In this document: positions 1,560 to 54,312 of the stretch, piece by piece
Position numbering within the stretch: position 1 is the first letter of the stretch
Layout of the letters: every line of letters starts with the position of its first letter
DNA from: an uncultured Planctomycetia bacterium
GTDB lineage: Bacteria > Omnitrophota > Gorgyraeia > Velamenicoccales > Velamenicoccaceae
Direction of reading: 5' to 3'
NCBI GenBank assembly: GCA_964423185.1
Contig: CAYRDK010000005.1
Span: 115,930 to 179,929 of the forward strand
DNA: 64,000 nt
Position numbers and translations under genes: made by a program
Notes under the pieces: model-generated
What the model saw: the letters and a program-made list of their open reading frames with translations, nothing else
Database searches by the model: none
What the model was told of the DNA's origin: nothing

Positions 1560-1619
1560 GCTTCAACAAGAAGCTCCACGGGCTAAAAGCCCGCGGCTTC
1601 TTGCCAGCTGGCAAGAAGC
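1560..1619 (+). other. Cluster of mutually exclusive hairpins built from three copies of the word CAAGAAGC/GCTTCTTG
   Basis: gcttc-aacaa-gaagc spans 1560-1574. caagaagc (1567-1574) pairs with gcttcttg (1596-1603) and encloses the hairpin ccacgggc-taaaa-gcccgcgg. A perfect 22-nt palindrome cttcttgccagctggcaagaag spans 1597-1618. Confidence 0.3.
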
Positions 1620-1913: not shown

Positions 1914-3401
1914 ATGCTTAAACTTTTACGAAGAAAAAATGTCACGAAAAAAATATTTTATGCGCTGGCCATCATTATCATCCCGGCCTTTGTCATCTGG
2001 GGATCTGCCAACTTTACCCAAAAAGATAAAACACCGCGTTACGCAGGGATTATTTTCGGTGAAAAAGTCAGCTTTGATGACTTCCGCTATGCCATGATGG
2101 CCTGGGCAACACAACTCAAGCTGCAATATGGAGAAAAAACCAACGAAATCATCAACGCATTTTTTAACCCTGTTGAAGCAACATGGGACAGGCTCATCCT
2201 TTTGCATGAAGTCAAAAAAAGAAAGGTTAAAGTCGACAATCAAGAGATTATTGACGCTATCACAAAATTCCCATTTTTGCAAAAAGACGGCCAATTTGAC
2301 GCGCAGGCCTATGAGCTCTTCTTAAAATATTCACTGGACATCCCAGCGAGAACATTTGAAGAGCAATTACGCCAGAATATTGCCATGGGGAAAATCTTTA
2401 AAGAGGTAACAAAAAATATCACCATGACAGAAGAAGAAATCGAAAAATCTTATAACGACCAAAATGAACAAACGCGCGTAAAATATGCCTCCTTCCCTTC
2501 TCAAGGATACAAAGACAAAATAACTGTGAGCGATGATGAACTCAAAGAGTTTTATGAAAATTCAACACAGGAATTCCTGGCCCCTCCTCAGATCAACACA
2601 AACTATCTTATGATCAAATGGGATCAGCAGACATCTGAGCCTGAAAAAGAAGCCGCGCGTAAAAAAATGCGAGAAGCCAAAACCCTCGCTAAACATAAAT
2701 CGTTAGACGATATCGCAAAAGAGTTAAATTTAGAAAAACAAACAACGGGCTTTTTTGGCCTTTCAGACCCTATCCCGACTTTAGGATGGATGCCCCAATT
2801 AGGCCCTGCCCTTTTCGACTTGCCATTAGATCACGTGAGTGAAATTATTGAGCTTGAAAACGGAATCTTCATCTTTAAAACAATTGAAAAAAAAGACGCG
2901 CATCTTCCTGATTTTAAAGAAGTTAAAGAAAAAGCAACTACGCTCTTAAAAAACAAAAAATCAAAAGAGATGGCGCGCGCTAAAGCTATTGAGTTTATTA
3001 CGAAGCTCAACTCAAAACCAGCCCCCTTATCCGCTGATTTTGAAAAGGCCGCAAAAGAGCTTAATATTGAAATTAAAGAAACGCCTTTGTTTTCCCGAGA
3101 CGCCTACATCCCGGAGTTAGGCATAGCAGAACCTTTGAAAAAAATCGCTTTTTCCCTTAAAAAAGAAGAGTTTGCCAAAGAGCCCATCGAACTTGAACAA
3201 GGGTACTACTGCATTCAATCGCTTGAGATAATAATGGTAGATAGCGAAAAATATAAAAAGGAAAAAGAGGCGTTTAAGGATCAACTTTTGAGCCAGAAAA
3301 AAAGCAAAGAGTTCTCTGGCTATTTTGATGATCTTAAAAAACAAGCCCACCTTACCAGCTATATAGATGAAGATACTGTCAAAAAAGGAAGGCGGTTTTA
3401 A
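1914..3401 (+). CDS. PpiD/SurA-like periplasmic chaperone with a degenerate parvulin domain
   Basis: The N-terminal membrane anchor is KKIFYALAIIIIPAFVIWG. A SurA_N-like helical region follows, then a parvulin-like segment (…NGIFIFKTIEKKD). Confidence 0.7.
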   Translation: MLKLLRRKNVTKKIFYALAIIIIPAFVIWGSANFTQKDKTPRYAGIIFGEKVSFDDFRYAMMAWATQLKLQYGEKTNEIINAFFNPVEATWDRLILLHEVKKRKVKVDNQEIIDAITKFPFLQKDGQFDAQAYELFLKYSLDIPARTFEEQLRQNIAMGKIFKEVTKNITMTEEEIEKSYNDQNEQTRVKYASFPSQGYKDKITVSDDELKEFYENSTQEFLAPPQINTNYLMIKWDQQTSEPEKEAARKKMREAKTLAKHKSLDDIAKELNLEKQTTGFFGLSDPIPTLGWMPQLGPALFDLPLDHVSEIIELENGIFIFKTIEKKDAHLPDFKEVKEKATTLLKNKKSKEMARAKAIEFITKLNSKPAPLSADFEKAAKELNIEIKETPLFSRDAYIPELGIAEPLKKIAFSLKKEEFAKEPIELEQGYYCIQSLEIIMVDSEKYKKEKEAFKDQLLSQKKSKEFSGYFDDLKKQAHLTSYIDEDTVKKGRRF

Positions 3402-4637: not shown

Positions 4638-5657
4638 TCACAGCTCTTTGGCACTTTGGATCTGGCGCCCATTGCGATCGCCCAGATAAATCTTGCCACT
4701 CTCATCTGAATAAAAGATAAACCTGCCCGTTACATCTTTCCCGGAAGGCCTCGCAAAAAGAGTAAAATGGCTTTCGTTAATTTTCTCGTATTGATAAATA
4801 TACCCTCCTGCCTCTCCCGACAACTCCTTAGCCGCTCCCTGCCCTAAAAACTTGTCTAAAACACCTAAACGAACAGGATAAAAACCTAATTCCAGCTTAT
4901 ATCGAGCTATAGCATCCACGATATCACGCGTAGCGATAAAAGCGTTAACCTCATTAAGCTTAACCATCTGAGACTTTGTCTCCGGATAGACAGAAACGAT
5001 GAAACCGTTTATAGCCGGCCCAGAAGCCATAATAATAAAAATAGAAACCAAAAAAGGCATGATAACTCCCGCAAAAACCAAACGGACAGTATCAGCGCGA
5101 TAAAACTCTCTCAAACCAGCAATGAGAATAAAAAGCGACCAAGATATAGATACAAACCCGCCGATAATAGGCAAAAAATAAAAGAGTTCTGAAGCGCTTT
5201 TATAACACATAACCAAAAAAAGCGAAGAGAGCTTTTTATCAAAACCCAAAACAAATTTAATGCTAACCGCTAATACTAAAAAAACTAAAATAAAATTTAT
5301 AAGAGGCCGCCAGATAAAAAATGGCGATTGAATCATAGTCGAAGCAAGAAAATCAAGCTGCATCTGCTGCCCCTCTTCAAGTAAATTTTTAGCCAAGTAC
5401 TTGAACCAAATAACATTAACATAATCTAAAAAAAGTTTAACATACCCCAAAATAAAAACAAAAATCAAAGCCCTCCACAAACGCCTTTTAAGATCAACAT
5501 GGCTTAAAGAAGCAATCATCTTGAAAAAAAAAGCCGGCCTGAATAAAATAGCTGCGCATAACGGAAGAAACACTTTCAGCCTCTCGCGGAAACTCCCATT
5601 CTCCCAGGACAAATAAGTTTCTTTATCTGTTTTAGTAATACGGCTATCTAAACTCAT
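4638..5657 (-). CDS. Yip1-type polytopic membrane protein fused to a pseudopilin (GspG)-like C-terminal domain
   Basis: The N-terminal 220 aa are multi-TM with WENGSFRERL, as in the Yip1/DUF1282 style. The C-terminus DIVDAIARYKLELGFYP…GGYIYQYEKI…FTLFARPSGKD resembles the GspG globular domain. Confidence 0.55.
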   Translation of the reverse strand: MSLDSRITKTDKETYLSWENGSFRERLKVFLPLCAAILFRPAFFFKMIASLSHVDLKRRLWRALIFVFILGYVKLFLDYVNVIWFKYLAKNLLEEGQQMQLDFLASTMIQSPFFIWRPLINFILVFLVLAVSIKFVLGFDKKLSSLFLVMCYKSASELFYFLPIIGGFVSISWSLFILIAGLREFYRADTVRLVFAGVIMPFLVSIFIIMASGPAINGFIVSVYPETKSQMVKLNEVNAFIATRDIVDAIARYKLELGFYPVRLGVLDKFLGQGAAKELSGEAGGYIYQYEKINESHFTLFARPSGKDVTGRFIFYSDESGKIYLGDRNGRQIQSAKEL

Positions 5658-6044: not shown

Positions 6045-6206
6045 TTAAATCAATTTTTTAAAGTTATCTTTTCCGACACCGCATTCAGGACAAACCCAAT
6101 CCTGCGGCAGGGCTTCAAACTTCGTTCCGGCTTTAACACCGTGCTCAGGATCACCTATGACAGGATCATAAATATACCCACAGACCTCACAAACCCACTT
6201 TTCCAT
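6045..6206 (-). CDS. rub: Rubredoxin
   Basis: Missed by the ORF track because it is 53 aa. The translation is [53 protein letters not shown], with both CxxCG knuckles. It starts 4 nt after the porB stop. Confidence 0.85.
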
Positions 6207-6210
6207 AAGA

Positions 6211-7086
6211 TTACTCTTCCGTTTTTAAACCATATTTTTTAATATTGTAATCCGCTACATCCTGAATCGCTTTTAAACCCTTTGGATCTTTAAGCAGATG
6301 CTTAAAACGGCCCTGCAATTTTAAATACTCCTCAACAGGCTTAATCTTGGCGATCTTTCTTGAAACCAATTGGCCATCGATATATTCAAATAACGGATAG
6401 AGGCCTGTTTCTACGGCAAGCTTGGCAACTTCAAGCGTCAGGTTTGATTCATGGCGCCATCCTAAAGGGCAAGGGACATGAATCTGAAGATACTTCGGCC
6501 CCTTAATCTTTAAAGCTTTTTTTACTTTATTCTGAATATCCATCGGAATCCCCGCTGAAGCCGTCGCGACATAAGGAACGCCATGAGCAGCGGCAATCTC
6601 AGGCATAGGTTTTTTAGGCCTTGGATTACCATAAGAGTTTTTGCCCGGAGGCGTTGTTGTCGTGTTAGATGTTGTCTGTGTCAAGCCGCTGCGCTGGATA
6701 CCTGTGTTCATATAAGCTTCATTATCATAGCAAACGTAAAGGATATCGTGCCCTCTTTCAAGCATCCCCGACAAAGCCTGTAAGCCAATATCTGCCGTAC
6801 CTCCATCACCAGCCTGCGCGATCACATTAACAGCATCTTTCTTCCCAAGATACTTCAGAGCTGATTCAACACCAGAAGCAACGGCCGCACAATTTTCAAA
6901 AAGCGAATGAATCCACGGCACCCCCCAGGAAGACTCAGGATATTTTGTCGAGAAGACTTCCAGGCAACCTGTATTATTGGCAATAATCGTGTTTTTTCCC
7001 GCCGCATCCACAACTAAACGCGCGGCAATAGCCTGCCCGCAGCCGGCGCACGCTGTATGTCCCGGTTTAAATAAAGTTTCAACCAT
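6211..7086 (-). CDS. porB: Pyruvate/2-oxoacid:ferredoxin oxidoreductase, beta (TPP-binding) subunit
   Basis: CAGCGQ and the TPP motif GDGGTADIG are present. I set the start at MVETLF, where an ATGA overlap with the porA stop occurs. The 35-aa extension in the ORF track overlaps porA. Confidence 0.9.
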
Positions 7087-8260
7087 TTTTCCCCTCCAAT
7101 AGTTCTTTTTTAAGCCCAATAAATTCACAATCAACCTGTTTTCCAGATAATTTTTCATAAACATCAAAAATAGAAGCTTTCTTAATATCACGGCCGCCTA
7201 ATCCTAAAACAAAACCACTAACTTGCGGCGCCTTATCCTTTAAAGAAGCCAAAGCCGCTTTTAAATCGGTATATACCGGCCCAAAACTACCAAGCGAAAT
7301 CGACTTATCTACAACAGCGACTTTCTTAGCCTTGCTCAATGCCGAAATAATGGCCTGAACAGGAAAAGGCCTATAGGCAATAAGTTTTAACAAACCAACT
7401 TTTTTTCCATCTTGGCGCAACTCATCTATGGCATCCTTAATCGTCCCGCAAACAGACCCCATAGCAACAAAAACAACATCAGCATCGTCAAGCATATATT
7501 TTTCAACCAGGCCGTCACCGCCCCTTTTAAACTGCTTTTCAAAAGCCTGCGCGGTTTCTACAATAATAGCCAAAGACTCCTCTTGCGTTTTTTGAATCAT
7601 ATACCTCATTTCCAGATAATATTCTGGATCAGCCAAAAAACCCATCGTTTTAGGATCATCCACGTCCAACTTGTAATCCGTTTTATAACCAGGAAGAAAC
7701 TTATCAACCTCTTCCTGAGAAGGCATATCAACCGTCTCCATCCCGTGTGTCAGGATGAAACCATCCATATTCACCATAACAGGAAGCATAACCCGTTTAT
7801 CCTCAGCAATACGATAAGCTTTTAAATGCAAGTCAACTGCTTCCTGATTATTTTCAGCAAAAAGCAAAATCCATCCGGCATCCCGGACAGCCATAACATC
7901 CTGCTGATCATTCCAGATATTAATAGGCGCTGAAATAGCACGATTAGCGCATGTCATAACCAGAGGCAGGCGCATACCGGCGATATTGAAAACAACCTCC
8001 GCCATCAAAAGTAATCCTTGTGAACTTGTTGCCGTATAAGACCTCACGCCTGTAGCTTGAGACCCCAAAACGACAGAAGCCGCTGAATGCTCACTCTCCA
8101 CATTTACAAATTGGGCATCCATCTCTTGATCAGCAACCATTTGAGCCAAATCTTCAACGATATGCGTCTGAGGCGTAATCGGATAAGCAGACACAACGCC
8201 GGGTTTACATCTTTTTATAATTTGAGCGACTGCATGTGAACCTTCTAAAAATTGTTTCAT
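7079..8260 (-). CDS. porA: Pyruvate/2-oxoacid:ferredoxin oxidoreductase, alpha subunit
   Basis: GSHAVAQ…AYPITPQT…ESEHSA…TATSSQGL is the typical PorA N-terminus. Confidence 0.9.
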   Translation of the reverse strand: MKQFLEGSHAVAQIIKRCKPGVVSAYPITPQTHIVEDLAQMVADQEMDAQFVNVESEHSAASVVLGSQATGVRSYTATSSQGLLLMAEVVFNIAGMRLPLVMTCANRAISAPINIWNDQQDVMAVRDAGWILLFAENNQEAVDLHLKAYRIAEDKRVMLPVMVNMDGFILTHGMETVDMPSQEEVDKFLPGYKTDYKLDVDDPKTMGFLADPEYYLEMRYMIQKTQEESLAIIVETAQAFEKQFKRGGDGLVEKYMLDDADVVFVAMGSVCGTIKDAIDELRQDGKKVGLLKLIAYRPFPVQAIISALSKAKKVAVVDKSISLGSFGPVYTDLKAALASLKDKAPQVSGFVLGLGGRDIKKASIFDVYEKLSGKQVDCEFIGLKKELLEGKNG

Positions 8261-8313
8261 CTTAACATTGCCTCCAATTAAGTGCCTTTTCTCTACCTAT
8301 AATTTATAATCCA

Positions 8314-8571
8314 TTATTCTGTTTCAGGAATCATTTCTATGTCTTTTTTAGGGCAAATAGCCGCGCAATTTCCGCAGCCCTTGCAATAGGCAAGATCACA
8401 ATCAAATGTATTCTTCCCATCGCCTTTAATAATACCTTCGGGGCATATAAAAACACACATCCGGCAGGCTATACAGTTTTTCTTCAAAAACTTAGGCCTG
8501 ATATCTACCCGCCAGGAACCGGTTTTATTCGCGACGCTTGAACCTGGTTTTGATGTAATATGGCGCAACAT
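8314..8571 (-). CDS. porD: Pyruvate:ferredoxin oxidoreductase delta subunit (2x[4Fe-4S])
   Basis: Two cluster motifs are present: CIACRMCVFICP and CKGCGNCAAICP. Confidence 0.85.
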   Translation of the reverse strand: MLRHITSKPGSSVANKTGSWRVDIRPKFLKKNCIACRMCVFICPEGIIKGDGKNTFDCDLAYCKGCGNCAAICPKKDIEMIPETE

Positions 8572-8602
8572 AAAATATCTCCTTTTTCTTATCTATTCCC
8601 TA

Positions 8603-9163
8603 TCAAGATTTTCTTTTTTTAATAAACTCAAAACCTTTTTTTATTGCTTCCTTATTCATCTCTACAACCTTGGGCCCTTTTCCATCAAAGCGTTCACTGA
8701 TTGATTTAGCAAGATCATCTAAATCCAGTTCCCCTGTTGCCGCCGCGTAAGCGCCCAAGAGGACTACATTGCTTAACAATGTCTTGCCCATAATCTCCAT
8801 GGAGATCTTGTTTCCGGGAACAATATAAAGCTTTTGTGACCCTTTGGGCTTGGGAATCTCCATGCCTTCCCTTTCATTGACAACGGCAACACCATTATCT
8901 TTAAACCCCACATAACAATCAAAACCGCGCATTAACGTCGCATCAACAACAATCAGATAATCCGGCTGATTAACCTGGCTGCGTAAACGCACAGGCTTAT
9001 CGTCAATGCGGACAAACGCGTTCATGGGAGCGCCCATGCGTGCCGCCCCAAAATGAGGAAAAGCATATGGATACTTACCTTTATGAAAATACGCATACCC
9101 TAAAATGCTGGCGGTTGTAATAGCACCCTGCCCCGCTCTGGCATGAATCCTGATCTCCTTCAT
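8603..9163 (-). CDS. porG: Pyruvate:ferredoxin oxidoreductase gamma subunit
   Basis: IRIHARAGQGAITTA…FGAARMGAP is the PorG signature order. Confidence 0.9.
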   Translation of the reverse strand: MKEIRIHARAGQGAITTASILGYAYFHKGKYPYAFPHFGAARMGAPMNAFVRIDDKPVRLRSQVNQPDYLIVVDATLMRGFDCYVGFKDNGVAVVNEREGMEIPKPKGSQKLYIVPGNKISMEIMGKTLLSNVVLLGAYAAATGELDLDDLAKSISERFDGKGPKVVEMNKEAIKKGFEFIKKRKS

Positions 9164-9332
9164 CTAAATCCTCCTGTTCTATCCTTTTTATATGTAAAAA
9201 CAAATTTTTTGATATCACCCGTCTATCCTGAAAACATCCAGATACACAAAAACGACTAAAAACACCATCAAAAGATGATGCTGTTTTAATAAACTTTAAA
9301 TTTAATATGGCTAAATGTCAGGAAGAAACTAT

Positions 9333-9361
9333 ATTATAATAGCTACCTAAAATTTAATCAA
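9333..9361 (-). promoter_or_regulatory. sigma70-like promoter, TTGATT-17 nt-TATAAT, upstream of porG
   Basis: On the minus strand, 9361-9356 is TTGATT, the spacer is 17 nt and 9338-9333 is TATAAT. This implies a 5' leader of about 165 nt. Confidence 0.4.
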
Positions 9362-9457
9362 CACTTTTTGCGCAGACTTTTTTACAGACTATTTTCGCGA
9401 GGAGATAAGAATCAAAGAGGTGACGAAAAAATAATTTTAAGCCGAATAATTCTTTAA

Positions 9458-9907
9458 TTAATGCACCAACTGCCTTGAATTACACTCATCACATAACCCA
9501 AAAAACTCTAAACGGTGCGAATAAATCCTAAAACCCGTAACAGAGCGAACCTTATCGTCAAGCTCCTTAATCGCGGGTATACGGATATCATAAATCTTAT
9601 GGCAATTCTTGCAAATAAAATGATAATGTGAATGCACAACCGCGTCAAAATGGCTTAAGCCAGTGCCAAAATCCAATTCCCAAATCTGCCCTTGCTCCTT
9701 TAGAATTCTTAAATTCCGGTAAACTGTGCCCAAACTTAACCGGGGAAATTTACTTTTAAGCTTCTTATAAACCTGGTCAGCCGTTGGATGTTCTTTGCTG
9801 TTGGTCAACAGTTCAAGAATCTTCTGCCGCTGTTTTGTAATCCTATAGGCGCTATCCTTATCCGTTTCTTGAACTTTACCTGCCATATTTTTTTTGGTCT
9901 TCTTCAT
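9458..9907 (-). CDS. Fur-family metalloregulator (PerR-like by context)
   Basis: A winged helix (HPTADQVYKKL…LGTVYRNL) is followed by HSHYHFICKNCHKIYD and CDEC metal sites. Confidence 0.85.
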   Translation of the reverse strand: MKKTKKNMAGKVQETDKDSAYRITKQRQKILELLTNSKEHPTADQVYKKLKSKFPRLSLGTVYRNLRILKEQGQIWELDFGTGLSHFDAVVHSHYHFICKNCHKIYDIRIPAIKELDDKVRSVTGFRIYSHRLEFFGLCDECNSRQLVH

Positions 9908-10096
9908 TTAAATCTCCTTAACTTTGCCTATATTAGTAAATATCTCTGCCTGGCACTGCCCATGTTTCAACAGGCCAAGCCAAACTTACGCTTATCGCTT
10001 TATAGACGATCTATAATAAATCAATGTGAAACAAGACAAGAATATTTTTGAGGTAAGGCTTGTAACCAGTAGCAACAAGACAAAATTATATAAAAT

Positions 10097-10146
10097 TAAT
10101 AATAATTATTATTACTAATAATATAATAATTTTTGCGTCCTGTCAA
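10097..10146 (-). promoter_or_regulatory. Promoter TTGACA-17 nt-TATTAT, with an 18-bp perfect AT palindrome (Fur/PerR-box-like) just downstream of the -10
   Basis: On the minus strand, 10146-10141 is TTGACA and 10123-10118 is TATTAT. The palindrome TAATAATAATTATTATTA occupies 10097-10114. Confidence 0.45.
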
Positions 10147-10153
10147 TATAAAA

Positions 10154-10654
10154 CTAATCCTTCAGCAGGCCGGGGTAATCCCGTGGCAGGTCATTGCCTT
10201 GATATTGAATAGTGCCGTTCGCAGCGATTAAAACATATGTTGGGACTCCAATAACACCATAACGGGTGGCTGTTTTAGAATCCGCATCCAACAAAACCTC
10301 TAAAGCCAAATTTTTATTCTCAATAAAAGATTTAACCTTTTGGCGGCTCTCGCCCACATCAATGAGCAACAGTTGAATCTTCTGTTCTTTATAAACATCT
10401 TGTTTTTTAGAAAGTTCTGAAACCGTCTTGATACAATACGGGCACCACGTCGTGAAAAAAAACATAATAACAGGCTGGCCTTTAAAATCTGACAACGAAA
10501 CACTCTCGCCGCTTTCTGAAGACTCCAGTACAAAATCGGCAGCTTTTACATTAGAACGGCCTTTTTCCAAACGCGCGGAGGCCAAGAGATTCCCCGTTAG
10601 AAGGAAAAACAGGCACAACGATAAAAAAAATACCCTCTTCAATATTCTCTTCAT
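10154..10654 (-). CDS. TlpA/ResA-like periplasmic thiol-disulfide oxidoreductase
   Basis: It has a signal peptide, the WCPYC active site in FFFTTWCPYCIKT, and GVIGVPT. Confidence 0.8.
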   Translation of the reverse strand: MKRILKRVFFLSLCLFFLLTGNLLASARLEKGRSNVKAADFVLESSESGESVSLSDFKGQPVIMFFFTTWCPYCIKTVSELSKKQDVYKEQKIQLLLIDVGESRQKVKSFIENKNLALEVLLDADSKTATRYGVIGVPTYVLIAANGTIQYQGNDLPRDYPGLLKD

Positions 10655-11322
10655 ACAAGCAACCTCCCCATATTAATCAAAAAGTATTCCCCCGCTAAAA
10701 TTAAAAGGATTCCGCCAACCTTCTCAATCGTATACATCCACTTACCAGACTTGGGCATATTCACCAGAATACCGCTAAAAGTACCCGCCAAGATAAGCAA
10801 AGTCCCCATACCATAAGCAAAACTGAACAACAGGATAATTCCGTAAAAAAGATTCTGTTTTGTAGCTACAAAAACAAGGATTGTCCCTAAAACAGGCGCG
10901 GTACACGGCCCAACGATTAAACCTGAAATTAATCCTAATAGAAAAACAGAAAACTTGGATTTCGGGCTCTTAATCTTATTTAATAGGGGTGCCGGAATAT
11001 GCACCTCAAAAACACCCAGCATCGATAAACCAAATATAACACAAATATTTCCAATAATGAAAAAAGAGATCGGGCTCGAACTGATTTGCCCAAATATCTT
11101 TCCTGTCAAGCTGGCAAAAACCCCCAAGATACAATAGGTGATAGACATACCCAAAACATAAATCAGGCTTAATAAAAACGCGTGAAACTTATCTTTCTGT
11201 GAAGAAGCTCCAATATAGCCGATTGTGATCGGCAAAAGCGGATAAACACAAGGCGAAAAACTCACTAAAATACCCGCGCCAAAAGCCAAAAGTATTTCTA
11301 AAGGATTCCCTCCTGAAATCAT
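10651..11322 (-). CDS. ccdA: Cytochrome c biogenesis/thiol-disulfide transporter CcdA (DsbD core)
   Basis: SFSPCVYPLLP and GPCTAPVLG are the two conserved Cys motifs, and the protein has six TM segments. Confidence 0.85.
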   Translation of the reverse strand: MISGGNPLEILLAFGAGILVSFSPCVYPLLPITIGYIGASSQKDKFHAFLLSLIYVLGMSITYCILGVFASLTGKIFGQISSSPISFFIIGNICVIFGLSMLGVFEVHIPAPLLNKIKSPKSKFSVFLLGLISGLIVGPCTAPVLGTILVFVATKQNLFYGIILLFSFAYGMGTLLILAGTFSGILVNMPKSGKWMYTIEKVGGILLILAGEYFLINMGRLLV

Positions 11323-11660
11323 ACCTGCCTACCCTTCCCTTTACGGCTACAACATTCAGCCTCAATCCAATCCAAATATGCCTTATTCCCGGCAATAATC
11401 GGAAAAGCAATAACCTCACACACCCGATAACTATGCTTTTCTTTGATAACCTTGACCAATCGCTTCAAGAGGCTACGTTTTGTTTTAATGATTAAAAGAG
11501 ACTCTTGAGCCTTGTCAATCTTAGACTGCCACCAAAAAAAAGAGTCAATAGATTTTATTATATTCACACAAGCACATAGCCTCGATTCAAGCAATATCTG
11601 AGCCAAAAAGCCAGATTCTTTACCTTTTGGTGCCGTCACAAAAACAACACAATAACCCAT
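11319..11660 (-). CDS. cutA: Divalent-cation tolerance protein CutA
   Basis: VVFVTAP…CACVNI…SFFWWQSKI…E…LIIKT is the CutA1 fold signature. Confidence 0.85.
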   Translation of the reverse strand: MGYCVVFVTAPKGKESGFLAQILLESRLCACVNIIKSIDSFFWWQSKIDKAQESLLIIKTKRSLLKRLVKVIKEKHSYRVCEVIAFPIIAGNKAYLDWIEAECCSRKGKGRQV

Positions 11661-11663
11661 CTT

Positions 11664-12575
11664 CTACTCCGATTGCAATAAATAACGCGAAACTCCCAAG
11701 ACAGCCTTGGCCCCTTCGCCGGCGGCAACAATAATCTGCTTCTCCGGGATATCCGTCACATCACCCGCGGCAAATATACCAGCAACGCTTGTGCGGTTTG
11801 AACTGTCCACTTTGATTTCCATCTTACTATTTTTCTCCACAAAATCAATCATTTCTGAATTGGGGACAGAACCGATTTCAACAAAAACTCCCTGGACGGC
11901 AAGCTCTTTTAAATCCTGCCCATGCTGAAAAATAATCTTTTCCACGAAAGTTTTCCCTGCAATTTCCTGCACGCGCGCATTATTAAAAATATCCACCTTC
12001 ACGGACTCTTCAACCTTCCGGCGCATAATCATATCGCCGCCCAACTGCGCGTTGATATTAATTAAATAAACTTTTTGCGCAATATTAACCATCTGCAATA
12101 CTGCGTCCAGCGCGGAATTGCCTCCGCCAATAACAGCAATAGTTTTCTCAGCAAAAACCGGGCCGTCGCATGTCGCGCAATACGTCACACCCTTATTACA
12201 GTACGCCTCTTCCCCTTTCACATTAAGAGGGTTGGAGCGCCGGCCGGAAGCGATGATAACTGACTTAGCCGCAAAGACAGAACCCTGAACTTCCAGATGA
12301 AAATAGTTACGCTCGCCACGCAAAATCCGCCGGACAGGCTTATTCTTCACAACAGCAACGTCAAACTGCTTCAAATGCTGCTCAAACTTATCAACAAGGT
12401 CAATACCCCTCACCAGCTGATAACCTGTATAATTCTCAACGTCCGCGCTCCAAAGCGTCTGGCCTCCAACATCATCTGTAACAATTAAAAGGTCTAGCCC
12501 TTTCCTCGCGGCATATATCCCGGCGGTGATACCCGCGGGGCCCGCTCCAACAATGATGAGGTCATGATAAATCAT
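11664..12575 (-). CDS. trxB: Thioredoxin-disulfide reductase (low-Mr type)
   Basis: GAGPAG, the redox-active CATCDG, GGGNSA and GDV are all present. Confidence 0.9.
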   Translation of the reverse strand: MIYHDLIIVGAGPAGITAGIYAARKGLDLLIVTDDVGGQTLWSADVENYTGYQLVRGIDLVDKFEQHLKQFDVAVVKNKPVRRILRGERNYFHLEVQGSVFAAKSVIIASGRRSNPLNVKGEEAYCNKGVTYCATCDGPVFAEKTIAVIGGGNSALDAVLQMVNIAQKVYLININAQLGGDMIMRRKVEESVKVDIFNNARVQEIAGKTFVEKIIFQHGQDLKELAVQGVFVEIGSVPNSEMIDFVEKNSKMEIKVDSSNRTSVAGIFAAGDVTDIPEKQIIVAAGEGAKAVLGVSRYLLQSE

Positions 12576-12805
12576 AAGCCGAGCTTGGCATTAATTCTAG
12601 CCTGGTCAAAACCAACAATAACGTCCCCATCAATCACTACCACAGGAACGCCCATCTGGCCGCTGAGGCCTATCATTTCTTGAAGCCCGGCCTGATCTGA
12701 TGAAACATCAATATTCTCAAACATGACACCTTTTTGTTGCAGATAGTTTTTAACTCTCACACAAAAAGGGCAAGCCGGTGTTGAGAAAACTCTTACCTGA
12801 GCCAT
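12572..12805 (-). CDS. Glutaredoxin-like protein (NrdH/YruB type)
   Basis: FSTPACPFCVRVKNYL and GVPVVVIDG are present. I moved the start to MAQVRV because GGAGG lies 6 nt upstream; the ORF track starts at 12838. Confidence 0.8.
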   Translation of the reverse strand: MAQVRVFSTPACPFCVRVKNYLQQKGVMFENIDVSSDQAGLQEMIGLSGQMGVPVVVIDGDVIVGFDQARINAKLGL

Positions 12806-12875
12806 AGCACCTCCTCTTTCATGATGCGTATCGCACATTCTGCCCGCGCTATTAAAACATCTGCCATATAATGAA

Positions 12876-13694
12876 CTATTTAAATACTTTATTCAACCAC
12901 TTTGAATGATCAGGAGACTCTAAAGAACTAAAAAGTTCTTCTTCTTGAATAAACCTTATCTCCTTCTGAAGTTTTTTCAAACACGATGAAGCCTCTTTAG
13001 CTAGCTTCCTGAATGAAGCCTTATCTAAAACAAGTTTGTCATTTTTGAGTTTTTTATAAAAAGAAACCAGCTTTTCCTCAATCTTTATCGCCATTTTTAA
13101 GGCTCCAATCAAAGAAAACCCCTGAGGTTTCATGTGGAGCCCTTCAAGCATACGAGACGCACCCGGCTCATATATTTCACCCGTTAGCTCCTGCAGATTC
13201 GCGATAAGCAGTTTCTTATGGACAAGCGACTCCTGATACATAATGCGAAAATTTTCTTTAACTTTGCCATTCTTTGTGTGCACCGTTACATATTTAGAAA
13301 ACTTCGCGGCAGCATGCTCTAAATCAACCGCGGCTTTAAGCCCATGATAAGCACTAAGCGCCTGCGTATCTTTTCTAACCATCAGCTTGATTTGAGCAAC
13401 GATCTCCTCGGCTTCTGGAAAATCATCCTGCTTAGCAACCAAGATACCGCCTTTAAAATAAAGCAGTGTCGGAATAACCCGGACACTAAACTCTTCCTGT
13501 TTTTTATTATCCTTCACATTGAGCCTGAAGAATAACATTTTGGAGGCATAATTTTTACTGGCTTCCTGTATGCGCTGGGCCATCGTTTTACAAATAATAC
13601 ACTCCGGGCTGGCGCACTCAACCAAAACCGGAAGGGCAGATTTCAACACGATCGCGTCAAATTGCGAATCATTAATCTCAATCATCTTAATCAT
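12876..13694 (-). CDS. Atypical thioredoxin-fold domain (CIIC) fused to an all-helical domain of about 165 aa
   Basis: The N-terminus …PVLVECASPECIICKTM…VIPTLLYFKGG is a Trx fold, but CxxC is C-I-I-C. The C-terminal helices carry DLEHAAAKF and AIKIEEKLVSFY. Confidence 0.6.
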   Translation of the reverse strand: MIKMIEINDSQFDAIVLKSALPVLVECASPECIICKTMAQRIQEASKNYASKMLFFRLNVKDNKKQEEFSVRVIPTLLYFKGGILVAKQDDFPEAEEIVAQIKLMVRKDTQALSAYHGLKAAVDLEHAAAKFSKYVTVHTKNGKVKENFRIMYQESLVHKKLLIANLQELTGEIYEPGASRMLEGLHMKPQGFSLIGALKMAIKIEEKLVSFYKKLKNDKLVLDKASFRKLAKEASSCLKKLQKEIRFIQEEELFSSLESPDHSKWLNKVFK

Positions 13695-13874
13695 ATTATT
13701 TCACCCTCATAAGAATAGAAATCCTGAAGCTAATCCCCGCGGGATGTATCATGCGGATAAAACCTTATCAGCTCTGAACCATCAGCCTTTCATAAAAAAC
13801 AACAACAGGCTAATTTGTATGATACCATGGATCAAGATACCATTCAAGGCGGACAGAACAATTTTATTCTTTTT

Positions 13875-14621
13875 TTACAACATCTCAACCAAAAACATAC
13901 TTCTGCCAGCGCCTGAGCCTTCTTTCCGATAAGAAAAAAACTCGTTGTTATGGCATGAAGTACAAATCAAACTGTCATAAATAGCATCTTTTCTGATTCC
14001 TGAAGCAACAAGCTGATCCATAGCGGCCTCCTGTAAATCAAAATAGATTTTTTTGCCGCGCCAAATTAAAAAATTATCAAAATGTTGCAAAAACTCTTCC
14101 CCTACTTCATAGCAACAAGGCCTGATAGACGGCCCAACAACAACCAGTAACTCAGACGGCTTTACGCTCAAACGGCTAACCATGGCATAAACTGTCTTTG
14201 AGATAATTAACTTCTCTATACCGCGCCAGCCAGCATGAATCAATGCCATCGCCTTCCTGTTCTTATCTAAAATAAAAATAGGAAGGCAATCAGCCGTCAA
14301 AATGCCCATAGGCAGCCGGCGCGCATCTGTAACAAAAGCATCTGTAGCATCAATGGCTGTTATTCGATTCAAGCCCCCGCAACCTCTTTGTGCGCGTACG
14401 GTAAAAAAAATACCGTCACCGTGCACCTGATTAGGACAAACAATTTCATGCCCGCTTACCTCCATAGCCTCATAGGCCTGCCGCCGGCTGGAAACCCCAA
14501 AGTCATCTTCAAAAGCCATATTGTAATCACGTGTTGTAATAAAACCTCGAACCTGAAACTTTTCTAAAAGCGGGATTCGGTAAAAACCTTTATCTTTTTT
14601 TAAAACAAGAAGGTTCGGCAT
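13875..14621 (-). CDS. pgeF: Peptidoglycan editing factor PgeF/YfiH (DUF152, laccase-domain protein)
   Basis: NQVHG, TADCLPIF, HAGWRG and CTSC are the family motifs. Confidence 0.85.
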   Translation of the reverse strand: MPNLLVLKKDKGFYRIPLLEKFQVRGFITTRDYNMAFEDDFGVSSRRQAYEAMEVSGHEIVCPNQVHGDGIFFTVRAQRGCGGLNRITAIDATDAFVTDARRLPMGILTADCLPIFILDKNRKAMALIHAGWRGIEKLIISKTVYAMVSRLSVKPSELLVVVGPSIRPCCYEVGEEFLQHFDNFLIWRGKKIYFDLQEAAMDQLVASGIRKDAIYDSLICTSCHNNEFFSYRKEGSGAGRSMFLVEML

Positions 14622-14635
14622 AATGTGGATTTTAA

Positions 14636-14869
14636 TCAGCTAAGAACTTCAATAGTTTTATGATGGGAATGCTCCCCCCTGATAATTACAATAGAACTCT
14701 TACTGACACGATAATACCGGGCGAGCATATCTACAAGGGCCTTATTGGCTTTACCCTTCTCAGGCGCAACCGTCAAATATACTTTTAATAATCCGCCTTC
14801 TTCTTTGACCTGATTACGGGAAGACTTGGGGACAACCTTAACTTTAATCAACATTTTGGAAACATTCAC
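14636..14869 (-). CDS. DUF167 (YggU) family protein
   Basis: VKVVPKSSRNQV…L.VYLTVAPEKGKAN.AL matches the family. Confidence 0.75.
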   Translation of the reverse strand: MNVSKMLIKVKVVPKSSRNQVKEEGGLLKVYLTVAPEKGKANKALVDMLARYYRVSKSSIVIIRGEHSHHKTIEVLS

Positions 14870-16032
14870 AATTCCTGATCAATGGCCTCGGGTTCTTCCA
14901 GCTTAATCTGAACAATGCCGTCTTTTTCCTGCCGCAGCTCTTCGATCTTCTTCAACTGTTTATCCAGCTGATTTTTACGCGTTGTACATAGTTTTTCATA
15001 CTCTTCCTGGGCCTCATCAATCTTTTCCCCTATCTTATCCAATGAAGCACAAAATAAAAAATATTGTTTCTCAAAAGAAGCCAAAACATCCAAAATCCTG
15101 TGAGCTGTACGCTCAAGGTTAAAATTATCAACGGCCTGGCGGATAACAGCCAAAATAGCGAATAAAGTCAACGGAGAACAGAAAATAACCCGTTGTTTCA
15201 TCGCCTCATCTAAAACAGACCTGTCATTTTCATTAACAAAAGCATAAACTTGTTCATTAGGAATAAAAACAATCACGTATTCCATAGTCTGATGCTCGGG
15301 ATCTATATAATCTCTCGTCGTAACTTCTTTAATACGATTTTTCACATCGCGCAAAAATTGCTCTTTATAAGCCTGTTTTTCCTGATCCGCTTGCGCTTCA
15401 AAAAAACGCAAGTAGTTATCCAAGGGGAATTTTACATCCATATTAACTCGCAGGCCCTTCGGCAGAAAAAAAGTATAATCCGGCCTTCCAGCCCCTTGAG
15501 CCTTCTGTTTGACATAATTAACGCCTTCGATAAAACCGGCCATGCGAAGCACATCTTCAGCCATCCGTTCACCCCATTGCCCTCTAGTCTTCGTATTAGT
15601 CAAAGCCATCTTAAGCTGTTGGGCCGTTTCCTGCAACTTGGACGTTTCCTGGGCCATCTGGCCCAATCCTAATGACAACTGGGCAAACTTATTTTCTCTG
15701 TCTTTCTCTAAAGACTTCATCAAATCCTTAACCTTCTCCAACTCCCCTCTCATATCGAAAACAGACTGATCAATCAGCTTCTTCTTGCCTTCTAAATCCT
15801 TATCAACGGAGAGCGACAAGGTATAGAGCTTCTCCTGCGCCAATTGCAGAAAATGCTCGCTGTTTTTCGACAAAGCCTCATAAGACAAACTGGCAAAAAC
15901 CCCTTTAAGTTTATCCACCGCGTCACCCATCTGCTTATCCGATTCAGCGGTAAGTTTTCTTTTTACGGAGAAGACGATAAAAAACACTCCTAAACCCAAT
16001 ATTAATCCGACTAACAACATAATATAATTCAT
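14866..16032 (-). CDS. rmuC: DNA recombination protein RmuC
   Basis: An N-terminal TM segment is followed by a coiled coil, then TRGQWGE…RPDY…DVKFPL…VIVFIPNE. Confidence 0.85.
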   Translation of the reverse strand: MNYIMLLVGLILGLGVFFIVFSVKRKLTAESDKQMGDAVDKLKGVFASLSYEALSKNSEHFLQLAQEKLYTLSLSVDKDLEGKKKLIDQSVFDMRGELEKVKDLMKSLEKDRENKFAQLSLGLGQMAQETSKLQETAQQLKMALTNTKTRGQWGERMAEDVLRMAGFIEGVNYVKQKAQGAGRPDYTFFLPKGLRVNMDVKFPLDNYLRFFEAQADQEKQAYKEQFLRDVKNRIKEVTTRDYIDPEHQTMEYVIVFIPNEQVYAFVNENDRSVLDEAMKQRVIFCSPLTLFAILAVIRQAVDNFNLERTAHRILDVLASFEKQYFLFCASLDKIGEKIDEAQEEYEKLCTTRKNQLDKQLKKIEELRQEKDGIVQIKLEEPEAIDQEL

Positions 16033-21668: not shown

Positions 21669-22961
21669 CTAAAGCTTAACCACATTCGGAGCTTTAAATT
21701 TCACAGCATTTCTTGTATCCAGAAGAAGCCTGGCATGCCGGACAATCCATTCATAATCATAACAATTATGATCTGTCACAACAACCACGCAATCACTTTT
21801 ATTTAAAAGAGACGGGGTAAGCTTAACACTCTTCATGTTAAAATGATCCTTCGCGACTTCAGGGACAAAAGGATCATTATAAGACACGACAGAACCTTTC
21901 TCTTTAAGAAAATGCATGATCTCAAAAGCGGGAGACTCCCTGTAATCGCTGACGTTTCTTTTATAAGCGACACCTAATATAAGAATTTTAGCATTTTTTA
22001 AGCTTTTACCTTTATTGTTCAACGCATCCGCCACTTTATAAGCAACATGCTGCGGCATCATACTGTTAACACGGGCGGCTAAGTCAATAAAGCGCGCTTC
22101 AAATCCAAAGAATCTAGCTTTCCATGACAAATATAGGGGATCAATAGGAATACAGTGCCCGCCCAAGCCGGGGCCGGGATAAAAAGGCATGAAACCGAAC
22201 GGCTTCGTTGAAGCCGCATCAATAACTTCCCAGACATCAATCCCCATACGGTCGCACATCAAAGCCAGCTCATTGACTAAACCAATATTAACAGCCCGAA
22301 AAGCATTCTCGAGGAGTTTAACCGTTTCCGCCACTCTCGTTGAAGAAACGGAATAAACAGATTCCATAATCAGCCCATAAAACTTTTGGGCAACATCAAC
22401 ACAAGCAGGCGTAACTCCACCGACAACTTTTGGAATATTTTTTGTGCGAAAACTTCTGTTGCCGGGGTCAACGCGTTCAGGAGAAAAAGCTAAATAGAAA
22501 TCTTTACCGGCCTTAAACCCTTTTTTTTCAAACATAGGAAGCAAGACTTCCTCTGTTGTTCCCGGGTATGTTGTGCTTTCTAAAATAATCAACTGCCCCT
22601 TCTTGAGATAACGCGCGATTTGCGACGCGGCGGCAACGATATAAGAAATATCGGGCTCTCTGGTTTTAGACAAAGGTGTCGGGACACAGATATTAATTGT
22701 ATCAACACTTTTTAGAATTGAAAAATTGGCGGTTGCCGACAATAACCCCTTAGAGACACACCTGGCCAGTTCTTCCGCGTCAACATCCTGAATGTATGAC
22801 CTCTTTAAATTAACAGCATCAACTTTACCTTTATCTAAATCTATACCGACAACCTCTATGCCGGATGCGGCAAATTCAATCGCCAAAGGCAACCCAACAT
22901 ACCCAAGGCCAACCACCGCGCTCTTAATTTTCTTCTCCTGAATCTTTTCAACCAAAGTCAT
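21669..22961 (-). CDS. Nucleotide-sugar 6-dehydrogenase (UDP-GlcNAc/UDP-ManNAc dehydrogenase-like)
   Basis: VGLGYVGLPLA is a Rossmann motif and GGHCIP contains the catalytic Cys. Confidence 0.85.
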   Translation of the reverse strand: MTLVEKIQEKKIKSAVVGLGYVGLPLAIEFAASGIEVVGIDLDKGKVDAVNLKRSYIQDVDAEELARCVSKGLLSATANFSILKSVDTINICVPTPLSKTREPDISYIVAAASQIARYLKKGQLIILESTTYPGTTEEVLLPMFEKKGFKAGKDFYLAFSPERVDPGNRSFRTKNIPKVVGGVTPACVDVAQKFYGLIMESVYSVSSTRVAETVKLLENAFRAVNIGLVNELALMCDRMGIDVWEVIDAASTKPFGFMPFYPGPGLGGHCIPIDPLYLSWKARFFGFEARFIDLAARVNSMMPQHVAYKVADALNNKGKSLKNAKILILGVAYKRNVSDYRESPAFEIMHFLKEKGSVVSYNDPFVPEVAKDHFNMKSVKLTPSLLNKSDCVVVVTDHNCYDYEWIVRHARLLLDTRNAVKFKAPNVVKL

Positions 22962-53124: not shown

Positions 53125-54312
53125 TTAAACATTGCCATATCTTAAATCTTTGCCATCATGAGGCGACTGCCAAAATTTTCTAATCGCGTAATAACTTCTA
53201 CGCGGGATGCGTTCATCCAAGCCATCTGCACTCGGTTTAACCCCCACAATACCAAACCACTCCTCGTTCATATTCATATTGCGCTCAGCCTTGATGTCTA
53301 GATAATAAGAACCATTGGACCAGTTAGATTCTGTGTCATGAACCGCCCAACCGCTGGAATCATAATCATTATGCTTCCACCACTCATCGCTCCATTCAAA
53401 CATAACACCGCCCAAACAATTCCCTTCGCCTGAAGAATTCCCAGCGAGATTCTGATAAATCTCAGCCCATTGCGATTCCAAAAAGAAAGCCTGCATATCT
53501 TCATCTTCGCACTTTTGCTGCGCGTTATAAACGTCCGAACCAAATTCGATAAAAACAATAGGCTTATCATATATCTTCTTTAAAGAACTAAAACTATTAC
53601 CGAATGTTTTACCTCTATAGATAACACAACCGACAATATCAATATCGCCAGCCACTTCATGGGCGATATCAAGATATGCCAGCTCACCATTGCCCATCAC
53701 AACAGGATGATCAGGGTCAATCTTATGAATTTCACAAGCCAGCTCATTAACAAGGGAGTAATAGACCCTGGCCTTCTCAGCCAGGCGTTCCCGCGGGTCT
53801 TTAATAGCGTCCAGGCGTTCGCTTGACCAGGAGTTAATCTTGCCACTAAAAGAAAAGTTATTCTCATTTCCTAAGACCCAAAACAGGATACCTTCCTCAT
53901 CTTTTAAGGCCTCTACCATAGCCAAAACTTCTCGCTTTACGGATTTACGGAATTCTTCATCATCATAAAAAGGCGCGGGGTAATTCCAAAAATTAAGCCA
54001 ATGGCCCATCATGGTATGAACGCCGTAATTATGATAAAGATCCTGCACAACCTTTTTTACTTCTTCTAAATTCTGGCCGGCCTGATAAAAACGAACGGTA
54101 TTTACACCCATCTTTTTCATCATTTCGCCGTCTTTCTTCCATGGCTCTTGAGAATCAGCCCAAAAATTATAATCGTGTGTCTGGCCTATAGGAATAGGGT
54201 TATAACAAACACCTTTAACGATAAACGGCCTGCCAGCAACTATCAATTGATAGTGCCCGTTCTTTAGCATTTTAACATAAACTTTCTTATGGTTGGCTGG
54301 TGCCATTCCCAT
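53125..54312 (-). CDS. Clan GH-A (TIM-barrel) glycoside hydrolase with an ambiguous start codon
   Basis: RPFIVKGVCY, GVNTVRFYQ, the acid/base LGNENN, IYRG and the nucleophile region FIEFGSD, then GGVMFEWSDEWW, are present. In-frame ATGs occur at 54312, 54306 and 54429; see the heptamer finding. Confidence 0.75.
   Translation of the reverse strand: MGMAPANHKKVYVKMLKNGHYQLIVAGRPFIVKGVCYNPIPIGQTHDYNFWADSQEPWKKDGEMMKKMGVNTVRFYQAGQNLEEVKKVVQDLYHNYGVHTMMGHWLNFWNYPAPFYDDEEFRKSVKREVLAMVEALKDEEGILFWVLGNENNFSFSGKINSWSSERLDAIKDPRERLAEKARVYYSLVNELACEIHKIDPDHPVVMGNGELAYLDIAHEVAGDIDIVGCVIYRGKTFGNSFSSLKKIYDKPIVFIEFGSDVYNAQQKCEDEDMQAFFLESQWAEIYQNLAGNSSGEGNCLGGVMFEWSDEWWKHNDYDSSGWAVHDTESNWSNGSYYLDIKAERNMNMNEEWFGIVGVKPSADGLDERIPRRSYYAIRKFWQSPHDGKDLRYGNV

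Follow-up and report, generated by a model that had tools for sequence, protein, structure and literature searches.

A PerR-like Fur-family regulator of Omnitrophota with a conserved operator-type box at its own promoter

A Fur-family gene that follows a thiol-redox operon in the window, i.e. the whole 64-kb stretch of DNA that was analyzed, probably encodes a metal-dependent repressor of the PerR type that shuts off its own promoter via a conserved box. The Omnitrophota, a phylum of uncultured anaerobes, are for the most part ultra-small and in part predatory; our literature search on their transcriptional regulation, including PerR, found nothing relevant. For the Velamenicoccus clade, the locus offers a candidate sensor of oxidative stress. 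We consider the circuit to be an ordinary, textbook autoregulated Fur-family circuit in a little-studied phylum, with no new mechanism, and the value of the locus to lie in its annotation and in a testable handle.

All genes of the cluster, from the Trx fusion to rubredoxin, are located on the minus strand, in the order listed here. The Pfam and NCBIfam matches agreed with the gene identities and the gene order of the first-pass annotation.

12876-13694, minus strand: Trx fusion, a thioredoxin-fold domain plus a four-helix C-terminal domain (Pfam Thioredoxin, 5e-15)
12572-12838, minus strand: glutaredoxin-like protein, YruB family (Pfam Glutaredoxin, 1.7e-19)
11664-12575, minus strand: thioredoxin-reductase / AhpF-C-terminal-like flavoprotein (Pyr_redox_2, 4.7e-38)
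11319-11660, minus strand: CutA (PF03091, 3.4e-33)
10651-11322, minus strand: CcdA/DsbD-type (DsbD_TM) transmembrane thiol-disulfide electron transporter (PF02683, 5.4e-46)
10154-10654, minus strand: TlpA/ResA-like thiol:disulfide oxidoreductase, exported, with WCPYC (AhpC-TSA, 3.8e-25, and Redoxin)
9458-9907, minus strand: PerR-like Fur-family regulator, 149 aa (PF01475, 1.4e-33)
6211-9163, minus strand: PorGDAB
6045-6206, minus strand: rubredoxin

Three of the gene junctions in the cluster are 4-nt overlaps, and no terminator was predicted inside it. The glutaredoxin-like protein scored 88.0 bits against TIGR02196 (GlrX_YruB), the cutoff of which is 88.55, and the flavoprotein scored 290 bits against AhpF and 273 bits against TRX_reduct, each below its equivalog cutoff. 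For the TlpA/ResA-like protein, which has a hydrophobic N-terminus, ResA was the top NCBIfam match, again below the cutoff.

The regulatory elements of the cluster are as follows.

13819-13847, minus strand: thiol-redox operon promoter, TTGAAT-17-TATCAT plus a TG extension (9/12 with TG)
10141-10146, minus strand: -35 hexamer of the regulator promoter, TTGACA (TTGAC(A/T) in each of the 19 orthologous loci examined and in the window)
10118-10123, minus strand: -10 hexamer TATTAT of the regulator's own promoter (TAnAAT-like in orthologs)
10097-10117, no strand: conserved operator, TAG-TAATAAT-A-ATTATTA-TTA (PWM score 28.6 bits)
9908-10111, minus strand: predicted 5' leader of about 200 nt, read from the sequence
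9333-9361, minus strand: porGDAB-rubredoxin promoter, TTGATT-17-TATAAT (conserved in orthologs)

The regulator promoter, TTGACA-17 nt-TATTAT (10146-10118), begins 7 nt past the TlpA stop codon and was the top sigma-70-like match within 8900-14200, with 11 of 12 positions. Its -35 and -10 hexamers are conserved across genomes, whereas the spacer between them is not, and in the sense of this conservation we take the promoter to be real. The leader ends in the Shine-Dalgarno sequence AAGGAG (9914-9919). An Rfam scan of 8000-15000 gave no match, and a structured leader or riboswitch was rejected, as RNAalifold yielded no consensus structure in the orthologous leaders and the fold of the window leader was no better than that of shuffled sequences (z = -1.24). 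The conserved leader element TTTTTGTC was also rejected as an RNA motif, the simplest explanation being a Shine-Dalgarno sequence and the in-frame TTG start of the orthologs. The 200-nt leader of the window genome counts against autoregulation of the PerR type.

Over this promoter, at 10097-10114, lies the perfect 18-bp palindrome TAATAATAATTATTATTA that the first-pass annotation had described, separated from the -10 hexamer by 3 nt (TAG) rather than by the 4 nt given there. It is composed of a 7-1-7 operator core, TAATAAT-A-ATTATTA, at 10100-10114 (centre 10107), and a second 7-1-7 unit at 10097-10111 that overlaps the core at a 3-nt offset. The predicted transcription start (about 10111) falls inside the operator, which agrees with the proposed repressor-operator geometry, in that a 7-1-7 box of the Fur-family type covers the start. 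The suggested likeness to Fur/PerR boxes was also supported. The B. subtilis PerR box has the consensus TTATAATNATTATAA and the Fur box the consensus TGATAATNATTATCA; the box matches each at 12 of 14 positions and departs from both alike at the discriminating position 2/14, and the box thus cannot assign the subfamily.

The promoter and the AT-only 7-1-7 repeat TAATAAT-N-ATTATTA are kept in 21 related Omnitrophota loci besides the window, namely L002-L019 and L021 (72-94% protein identity), L045 (72%) and L046 (69%), from genomes with a GC content of 37-63%. The shared arrangement has TTGAC(A/T)-16/18-TAnAAT ahead of the AT-only inverted repeat; in 18 orthologous loci and the window, the flanked box starts 0-12 nt past the conserved -10. 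Within the box footprint (columns -12 to +11), conservation was 1.27 bits per column as compared to 0.13 in the flanks, and the AT content was 89% as compared to 52%. The heptamer inverted repeat with its 1-nt spacer and ATAAT-N-ATTAT core was supported by 19 aligned orthologous sites. Duplication of the box in an overlapping register, which produces the perfect palindrome, was seen in the window and its closest relative (L004) only. Box and promoter are both missing in L047 and L048, whose regulator gene directly adjoins or overlaps tlpA, leaving no room for a promoter of its own. For the Velamenicoccus clade, we regard the conserved box as part of a high-confidence promoter/operator pair.

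The encoded protein belongs to the Fur superfamily (116 bits against PF01475 (FUR) over residues 20-135, cutoff 23.1), and its top solved relative was B. subtilis PerR (2fe3; 3e-42, 147 bits, as compared to 86 bits for the next). The regulatory-site ligands H40, D88, H94, H96 and D107 align gap-free to H37, D85, H91, H93 and D104 of 2fe3, and H40, H94, H96 and D107 were invariant in a 12-sequence alignment. The Cys4 zinc site is kept, with C99, C102, C139 and C142 invariant in two CxxC motifs. A clostridial PerR model was the best NCBIfam match, with PerR ranked at the top; the scores were nonetheless below the cutoffs of the PerR equivalogs, with 118.9 vs. 180 for NF052545 and 94.6 vs. 200 for NF047406. 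On the sequence comparisons, the best reading of the regulator is a PerR-like one, not a Fur- or Zur-like one.

A PWM built from the orthologous sites was used to search for further boxes, and the operator was its sole significant match in the window. At 9.0 bits, within a coding region, the next best score fell short of the mean maximum by chance, 11, and weak matches at 21748-21774 and 53357-53377 were rejected as lying inside coding sequences and below chance level. With up to three mismatches allowed, the palindrome recurred in the window only as self-overlaps. The first-pass annotation had proposed a genome search with the palindrome to define a regulon, including the regions upstream of 13694 and of porG; in the window, the site at the regulator's own promoter was recovered, but no further box. 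The thiol-operon promoter, for which an extended -10 TGGTAtnAT is conserved upstream of the first gene in orthologs, gave no PWM match to a Fur-type box in the window or the orthologous loci, and none was obtained in the window at the por promoter, which in orthologs mostly reads CTTGATTT...TTACCTAATATAAT. Since por has its own conserved promoter, co-transcription with the regulator is not required, and obligatory co-transcription was rejected.

The outcome was similar beyond the window. Twenty orthologous loci of 2.5-12 kb, mostly of about 12 kb, were scanned; apart from L020, which begins inside the Fur-family gene, each had its sole match of at least 12 bits in front of this gene, and no second box was found in the approximately 190 kb of these loci. 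In two sister genomes (the assemblies of L011 and L002), the region upstream of rubrerythrin had no box, and none was found at catalase, ahpC, mrgA or other regulon promoters in the sequence examined. Among 80 metagenome rubrerythrin loci (448 kb), three (L068, L095 and L122) contained box matches of at least 14 bits; each has a Fur homolog upstream of rubrerythrin, and in L068 and L095 the match is located directly upstream of this homolog. With no second PWM site in the 64-kb window, the idea of a redox or peroxide regulon joining the thiol systems through the box was not supported in the sequence examined. A global peroxide regulator would not usually have one self-site alone, which counts against the PerR reading, as does the lack of a second box near any stress gene examined, rubrerythrin in the two sister genomes included.

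The palindrome alone is not unusual, because among 200 dinucleotide-shuffled versions of the window, 52% had a perfect palindrome whose arms measured 9 or more, and a longer one with arms of 12 is present elsewhere in the window (1596-1619). These shuffles, and the ATTATTA repeats that also occur in the promoter spacer of the window genome, would fit a functionless low-complexity (TAA)n/(TTA)n stretch in an AT-rich spacer. However, the motif keeps its position even where the flanks are GC-rich, in genomes with a GC content as high as 63%, which cannot be drift; cross-genome conservation refutes the chance explanation, which we consider extremely improbable. Judged from the aligned sequences, it is position and conservation that make the palindrome significant. 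Alternatively, the palindrome could be a conserved cis-element for another transcription factor or a nucleoid protein, or an initially transcribed AT-rich stretch that the promoter needs in order to function, with the Fur-family protein not being the binder, and the presence of one site per genome in the examined sequence, with no regulon to tie the palindrome to the regulator, is in line with this. Yet a 7-1-7 symmetry with an ATAAT-N-ATTAT core is the signature of the Fur family, and in 22 genomes the element accompanies the promoter that belongs to the Fur-family gene, being absent when the gene lacks such a promoter. The two central positions of the box vary freely while the half-sites are fixed, the pattern expected of a dimer site, and we find this alternative very unlikely.

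The protein may instead be a metal-uptake regulator of the Fur, Mur, Nur or Zur type, the box responding to metal supply and not to peroxide. The equal distance of the box to the Fur and PerR consensus sequences is compatible with this, as is the score of 97 bits against the NCBIfam Fur (Bacillus) model. A residue in helix H4 tells Fur from PerR, being Arg in Fur and Asn61 in B. subtilis PerR (PMC8638967), and the regulator has the Fur-type Arg64 (TVYRNL) in this DNA-reading helix. Arg64 and the sub-cutoff PerR scores both count against the PerR reading. However, of 15 other homologs checked, 13 have Arg at this position, among them 10 of the 11 located beside rubrerythrin, and the Asn/Arg criterion may therefore be specific to Bacillus. 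In other phyla, rubrerythrin follows homologs with the same Asp107/Arg64 pattern, so that Arg does not exclude a PerR role; the Asn/Arg rule thus fails beside rubrerythrin in several anaerobic phyla. At position 104, Asp separates PerR and Irr from Fur, Zur, Mur and Nur, which have Glu (PMC8638967), and the regulator has the PerR-type Asp (D107). B. subtilis PerR also scored at least 60 bits above every Fur or Zur structure, and nearby lie thiol-redox genes, rubrerythrin and rubredoxin, but no metal-transport genes. A metal-uptake regulator is on balance rather unlikely. It is also unlikely that the Omnitrophota regulators form a separate Fur-family specificity class, combining the PerR-type Asp with the Fur-type Arg and an A at the discriminating box position, with their sole operator on their own promoter at the end of a thiol-export operon. 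If they did, the repressor would mainly be a peroxide-released gate or roadblock between the thiol operon and the downstream genes, not a multi-promoter master.

Under the preferred reading of a PerR-type repressor acting on its own promoter, a metallated regulator dimer would bind TAATAAT-N-ATTATTA, 3 nt past the -10 and over the predicted start, and the bound dimer would block RNA polymerase, resulting in negative autoregulation. By analogy to B. subtilis PerR, H2O2 would lead to iron-catalysed oxidation of a regulatory-site histidine, with release and derepression as the consequence. Because no terminator separates the thiol operon from the regulator gene, read-through from the upstream operon could reach this gene, and the bound repressor may act as a roadblock too.

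The regulator and B. subtilis PerR have in common the Fur fold, the Cys4 structural zinc and the His37/Asp85/His91/His93/Asp104 site. The B. subtilis perR promoter is likewise overlapped by a 7-1-7 AT-rich inverted repeat, and PerR has been reported to control its own transcription (PMC8546684). In contrast, the Omnitrophota regulator, with approximately 48% identity in the alignment, has Arg in place of Asn61, and its box has A, not T, at half-site position 2. Another close system is clostridial PerR, which controls rubrerythrin operons (Clostridioides difficile, rbr1 operon; C. acetobutylicum). As here, a PerR-type repressor of an anaerobic organism is linked to defences of the rubrerythrin and rubredoxin type, and L046 has rubrerythrin as the next gene after the orthologous regulator, behind the boxed promoter. 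In the window clade, however, rubrerythrin is located elsewhere in the genome, box-free in the two sister genomes, and the window regulator follows a Trx/Grx/TrxR/CutA/CcdA/TlpA operon. The classical Fur box is similar in its 7-1-7 architecture and core, and the window genome has two overlapping units; overlapping 7-1-7 units were reportedly proposed for the 19-bp Fur box by Baichoo and Helmann in 2002. The window differs in that the overlap has an offset of 3 bp and is lineage-specific (the window and L004), and in that the protein has Asp, not Glu. The 21-nt motif can be used to scan complete genomes and thereby to define a regulon.

The C-terminal domain of the Trx fusion showed weak similarity to rubrerythrin/ferritin-like proteins (17.2 bits against PF02915, E 0.007, cutoff 22.8), and a precomputed PF02915 match is present in many of its orthologs. 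A fold search with the AF2 model (pLDDT 78.6) was dominated by the thioredoxin domain and uninformative for the C-terminal bundle; the model itself shows a Trx fold followed by four long helices. Of the two ExxH diiron motifs sought in this domain, helix B has ExxxH and helix D has KEASSC as compared to the consensus KEExxH. The active site of the Trx fusion is an atypical C32-I-I-C35, and this CIIC was invariant across 29 sequences.

The genes concerned lie on the minus strand, and both Pfam and NCBIfam bore out the gene list proposed in the first-pass annotation:

12876-13694, minus strand, thioredoxin-domain fusion
12572-12838, minus strand, YruB-type glutaredoxin-like protein
11664-12575, minus strand, thioredoxin-reductase/AhpF-like flavoprotein
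11319-11660, minus strand, CutA
10651-11322, minus strand, CcdA/DsbD-type membrane protein
10154-10654, minus strand, exported TlpA/ResA-like oxidoreductase
9458-9907, minus strand, Fur-family regulator
6211-9163, minus strand, porGDAB
6045-6206, minus strand, rubredoxin

Genes overlap by 4 nt at three junctions of the cluster, and no terminator was predicted inside it. In the product of the first gene, a thioredoxin fold, whose atypical CIIC site is invariant, is joined to a C-terminal four-helix domain with weak similarity to rubrerythrin (PF02915). This family is small (35 matches in the search), and its named members are all from Omnitrophota. The second ExxH-like motif of the fusion protein, KEExxH in the consensus, reads KEASSC in the window copy.

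The regulator promoter claimed after the TlpA stop codon is present: on the minus strand, TTGACA (10146-10141) starts 7 nt past the stop and is followed by a 17-nt spacer and TATTAT (10123-10118), which together represent the top promoter-like match of the region (11 of 12 positions). The palindrome reported over this promoter was also confirmed. It is perfect, TAATAATAATTATTATTA, and located at 10114-10097, although it is separated from the -10 hexamer by three nucleotides (TAG) rather than by four. Transcription is predicted to start approximately 7 nt past the -10 hexamer (near 10111), inside the left half-site. The palindrome consists of the conserved 7-1-7 unit TAATAAT-A-ATTATTA (10114-10100, centre 10107) and a second 7-1-7 unit at 10111-10097, common only to the window and the related locus L004; the 18-mer is perfect because the two units overlap with a 3-nt shift. 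The spacer and the -10 hexamer carry further ATTATTA heptamers (10116-10130 and 10107-10123), and a perfect 8-1-8 palindrome, TATTATTAGTAATAATA in the minus-strand reading, spans the -10 hexamer and the first half-site. This additional array is not kept in the relatives.

Taken by itself, apart from the comparative evidence, the palindrome is not beyond chance expectation, since perfect palindromes with arms of at least 9 nt occurred in 52% of the dinucleotide shuffles of the window, and the window itself contains a longer one at 1596-1619. No second copy was found within the window, allowing for up to three mismatches. The palindrome at 1596-1619, at 24 bp the longest perfect one in the window, is GC-rich (GCTTCTTGCCAGCTGGCAAGAAGC) and is flanked by two plus-strand genes 420 nt apart, a Dus-like gene (512-1492) and a long gene (1914-3401). 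It is not an obvious terminator, since both a loop and a T-run are missing.

The source of the window is an Omnitrophota bacterium near Candidatus Velamenicoccus archaeovorus, and relatives of the regulator with 72-94% identity were found in 20 genome loci (L002-L021). The gene order in the relatives is the same, with a Cu-oxidase_4 gene followed by the thiol genes, the regulator and por. Many relatives (L002, L011, L048 and others) have a nicotinate phosphoribosyltransferase gene (about 450 aa) between the regulator and porG, which in some overlaps the regulator stop codon and which is absent from the window. All 19 loci covering the region upstream of the regulator contain TTGAC(A/T), a spacer of 16-18 nt and TAnAAT, followed by an AT-only inverted repeat, whereas the spacer is unconserved and often GC-rich. 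Aligned on their centres, the orthologous sites read TAA-TAATAAn-N-ATTATTA-(A/T)TA. The 21 columns of this box hold 1.27 bits per column and are 89% AT, as compared to 0.13 bits and 52% downstream; the overall GC content of the loci ranges from 40 to 63%. Two central positions vary freely, as expected of a dimer site.

The same promoter, with a TAATAAT-G-ATTACT box, was observed in the more distant loci L045 (72% identity) and L046 (69%). In L047 (57%) and L048 (62%), the regulator gene abuts or overlaps tlpA, and neither a separate regulator promoter nor a box was found; the regulators of these two loci have Ala at the equivalent of the Asp85 ligand. These four loci, from deeper Omnitrophota branches, have a flavodoxin gene in place of the thioredoxin fusion and the thioredoxin reductase-like gene, and retain the order Grx-CutA-CcdA-TlpA-regulator. 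The alignments thus provide a clear phylogenetic footprint of a putative promoter-proximal operator, kept together with the regulator gene.

The best solved relative of the 149-aa regulator is B. subtilis PerR (2fe3; 3e-42, 147 bits), followed by streptococcal PerR (86 bits), with Fur and Zur structures below that. The alignment to 2fe3 is gap-free and places H40, D88, H94, H96 and D107 at PerR H37, D85, H91, H93 and D104, with a zinc site at C99, C102, C139 and C142. NCBIfam PerR models ranked highest, yet under their cutoffs. Two published marks of the subfamilies disagree here. An Asp at the last regulatory position marks PerR and Irr, and a Glu marks Fur, Zur, Mur and Nur, whereas in helix H4 an Asn marks PerR and an Arg marks Fur (PMC8638967); the regulator has Asp107, on the PerR side, and Arg64, on the Fur side. 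However, the Asp-plus-Arg pattern recurs in most of the homologs whose genes immediately precede rubrerythrin in metagenomic lineages, Nitrospirota/Manganitrophus among them, and the ortholog in L046 is directly followed by a rubrerythrin gene. Judged from these comparisons, a peroxide role is therefore not called into question by Arg64. Measured against the consensus boxes of B. subtilis PerR and Fur, the box agrees at 12 of 14 positions in either case and departs from them solely at the position that separates the two, so that it cannot settle the subfamily.

The footprint in the related loci and the position of the box over the predicted start both agree with the earlier proposal of a self-operator, and a predicted autoregulatory PerR-type operator is well supported. 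Binding, repression and signal are all inferred: most likely, a PerR-type repressor would bind its own promoter over the predicted transcription start, resulting in negative autoregulation; like its counterparts in B. subtilis and clostridia, the repressor would dissociate when peroxide causes metal-catalysed oxidation of histidine. Throughout Omnitrophota, the regulator gene accompanies the thiol-export operon, and in the deeper branches its translation is coupled to that of tlpA, suggesting that read-through transcription from this operon may also feed the regulator gene. We speculate that such transcription could meet a roadblock in the bound repressor.

The first-pass annotation had also proposed a peroxide or redox stress regulon. 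We derived a matrix from 14 non-redundant orthologous sites and scanned with it; it scored 28.6 bits at 10097-10117 and gave no further match above 9.0 bits in the window (mean chance maximum 11). Two weak matches were checked as sites, and both fall within coding sequences. Each orthologous locus contained a single match of at least 12 bits, before the regulator. Separate promoters serve the thiol operon, with a conserved extended -10 element of TGGTAtnAT (window 13847-13819), and por, where CTTGATTT...TTACCTAATATAAT (window 9361-9333) is strongly conserved; the matrix identified no box at either. Rubrerythrin loci from the assemblies of L011 and L002 scored at best 8.2 and 5.8 bits, with no box. 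Among 80 metagenomic rubrerythrin loci, only three had matches of at least 14 bits, each with a Fur homolog upstream of rubrerythrin. Thus, the box did not recur upstream of other stress genes in the window, the orthologous loci or the sister-genome rubrerythrin loci, and the regulon is not supported within the sequence scanned.

The por promoter is unusually conserved as CTTGATTT-N-TTACCTAATATAAT in L002, L005, L007-L011 and L014-L019, and the conservation reaching upstream of the -10 hexamer points tentatively to an additional site of protein binding. The window (9333-9361) and L004 have a plainer version, TTGATT/TTGATA-17-TATAAT.

No conserved RNA structure was found in the regulator leader. 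The leaders of L003, L005, L010-L013 and L015-L019 share a yCCCGCC element between the box and the start codon, approximately 45-56 nt before the Shine-Dalgarno sequence and the TTG start. Neither the window nor L004 has this element, and RNAalifold gave no consensus structure. In many orthologs, an in-frame TTG with an AAGGGA-like Shine-Dalgarno sequence is probably the regulator start. Such candidates, observed in L002, L005, L006, L008, L009, L012, L014, L016 and L017, are located several codons upstream of the ATG picked by gene callers. The called ATG in L045, L046 and L021 falls within the operator, so that either the leader would be very short or the start would be miscalled. Intergenic short tandem repeats flank the cluster in L006 (13-80, AGATAGAAG-type) and in L014 (approximately 1230-1650 and 4970-5120, GGCACGGCAGCTCA-type around runs of N).
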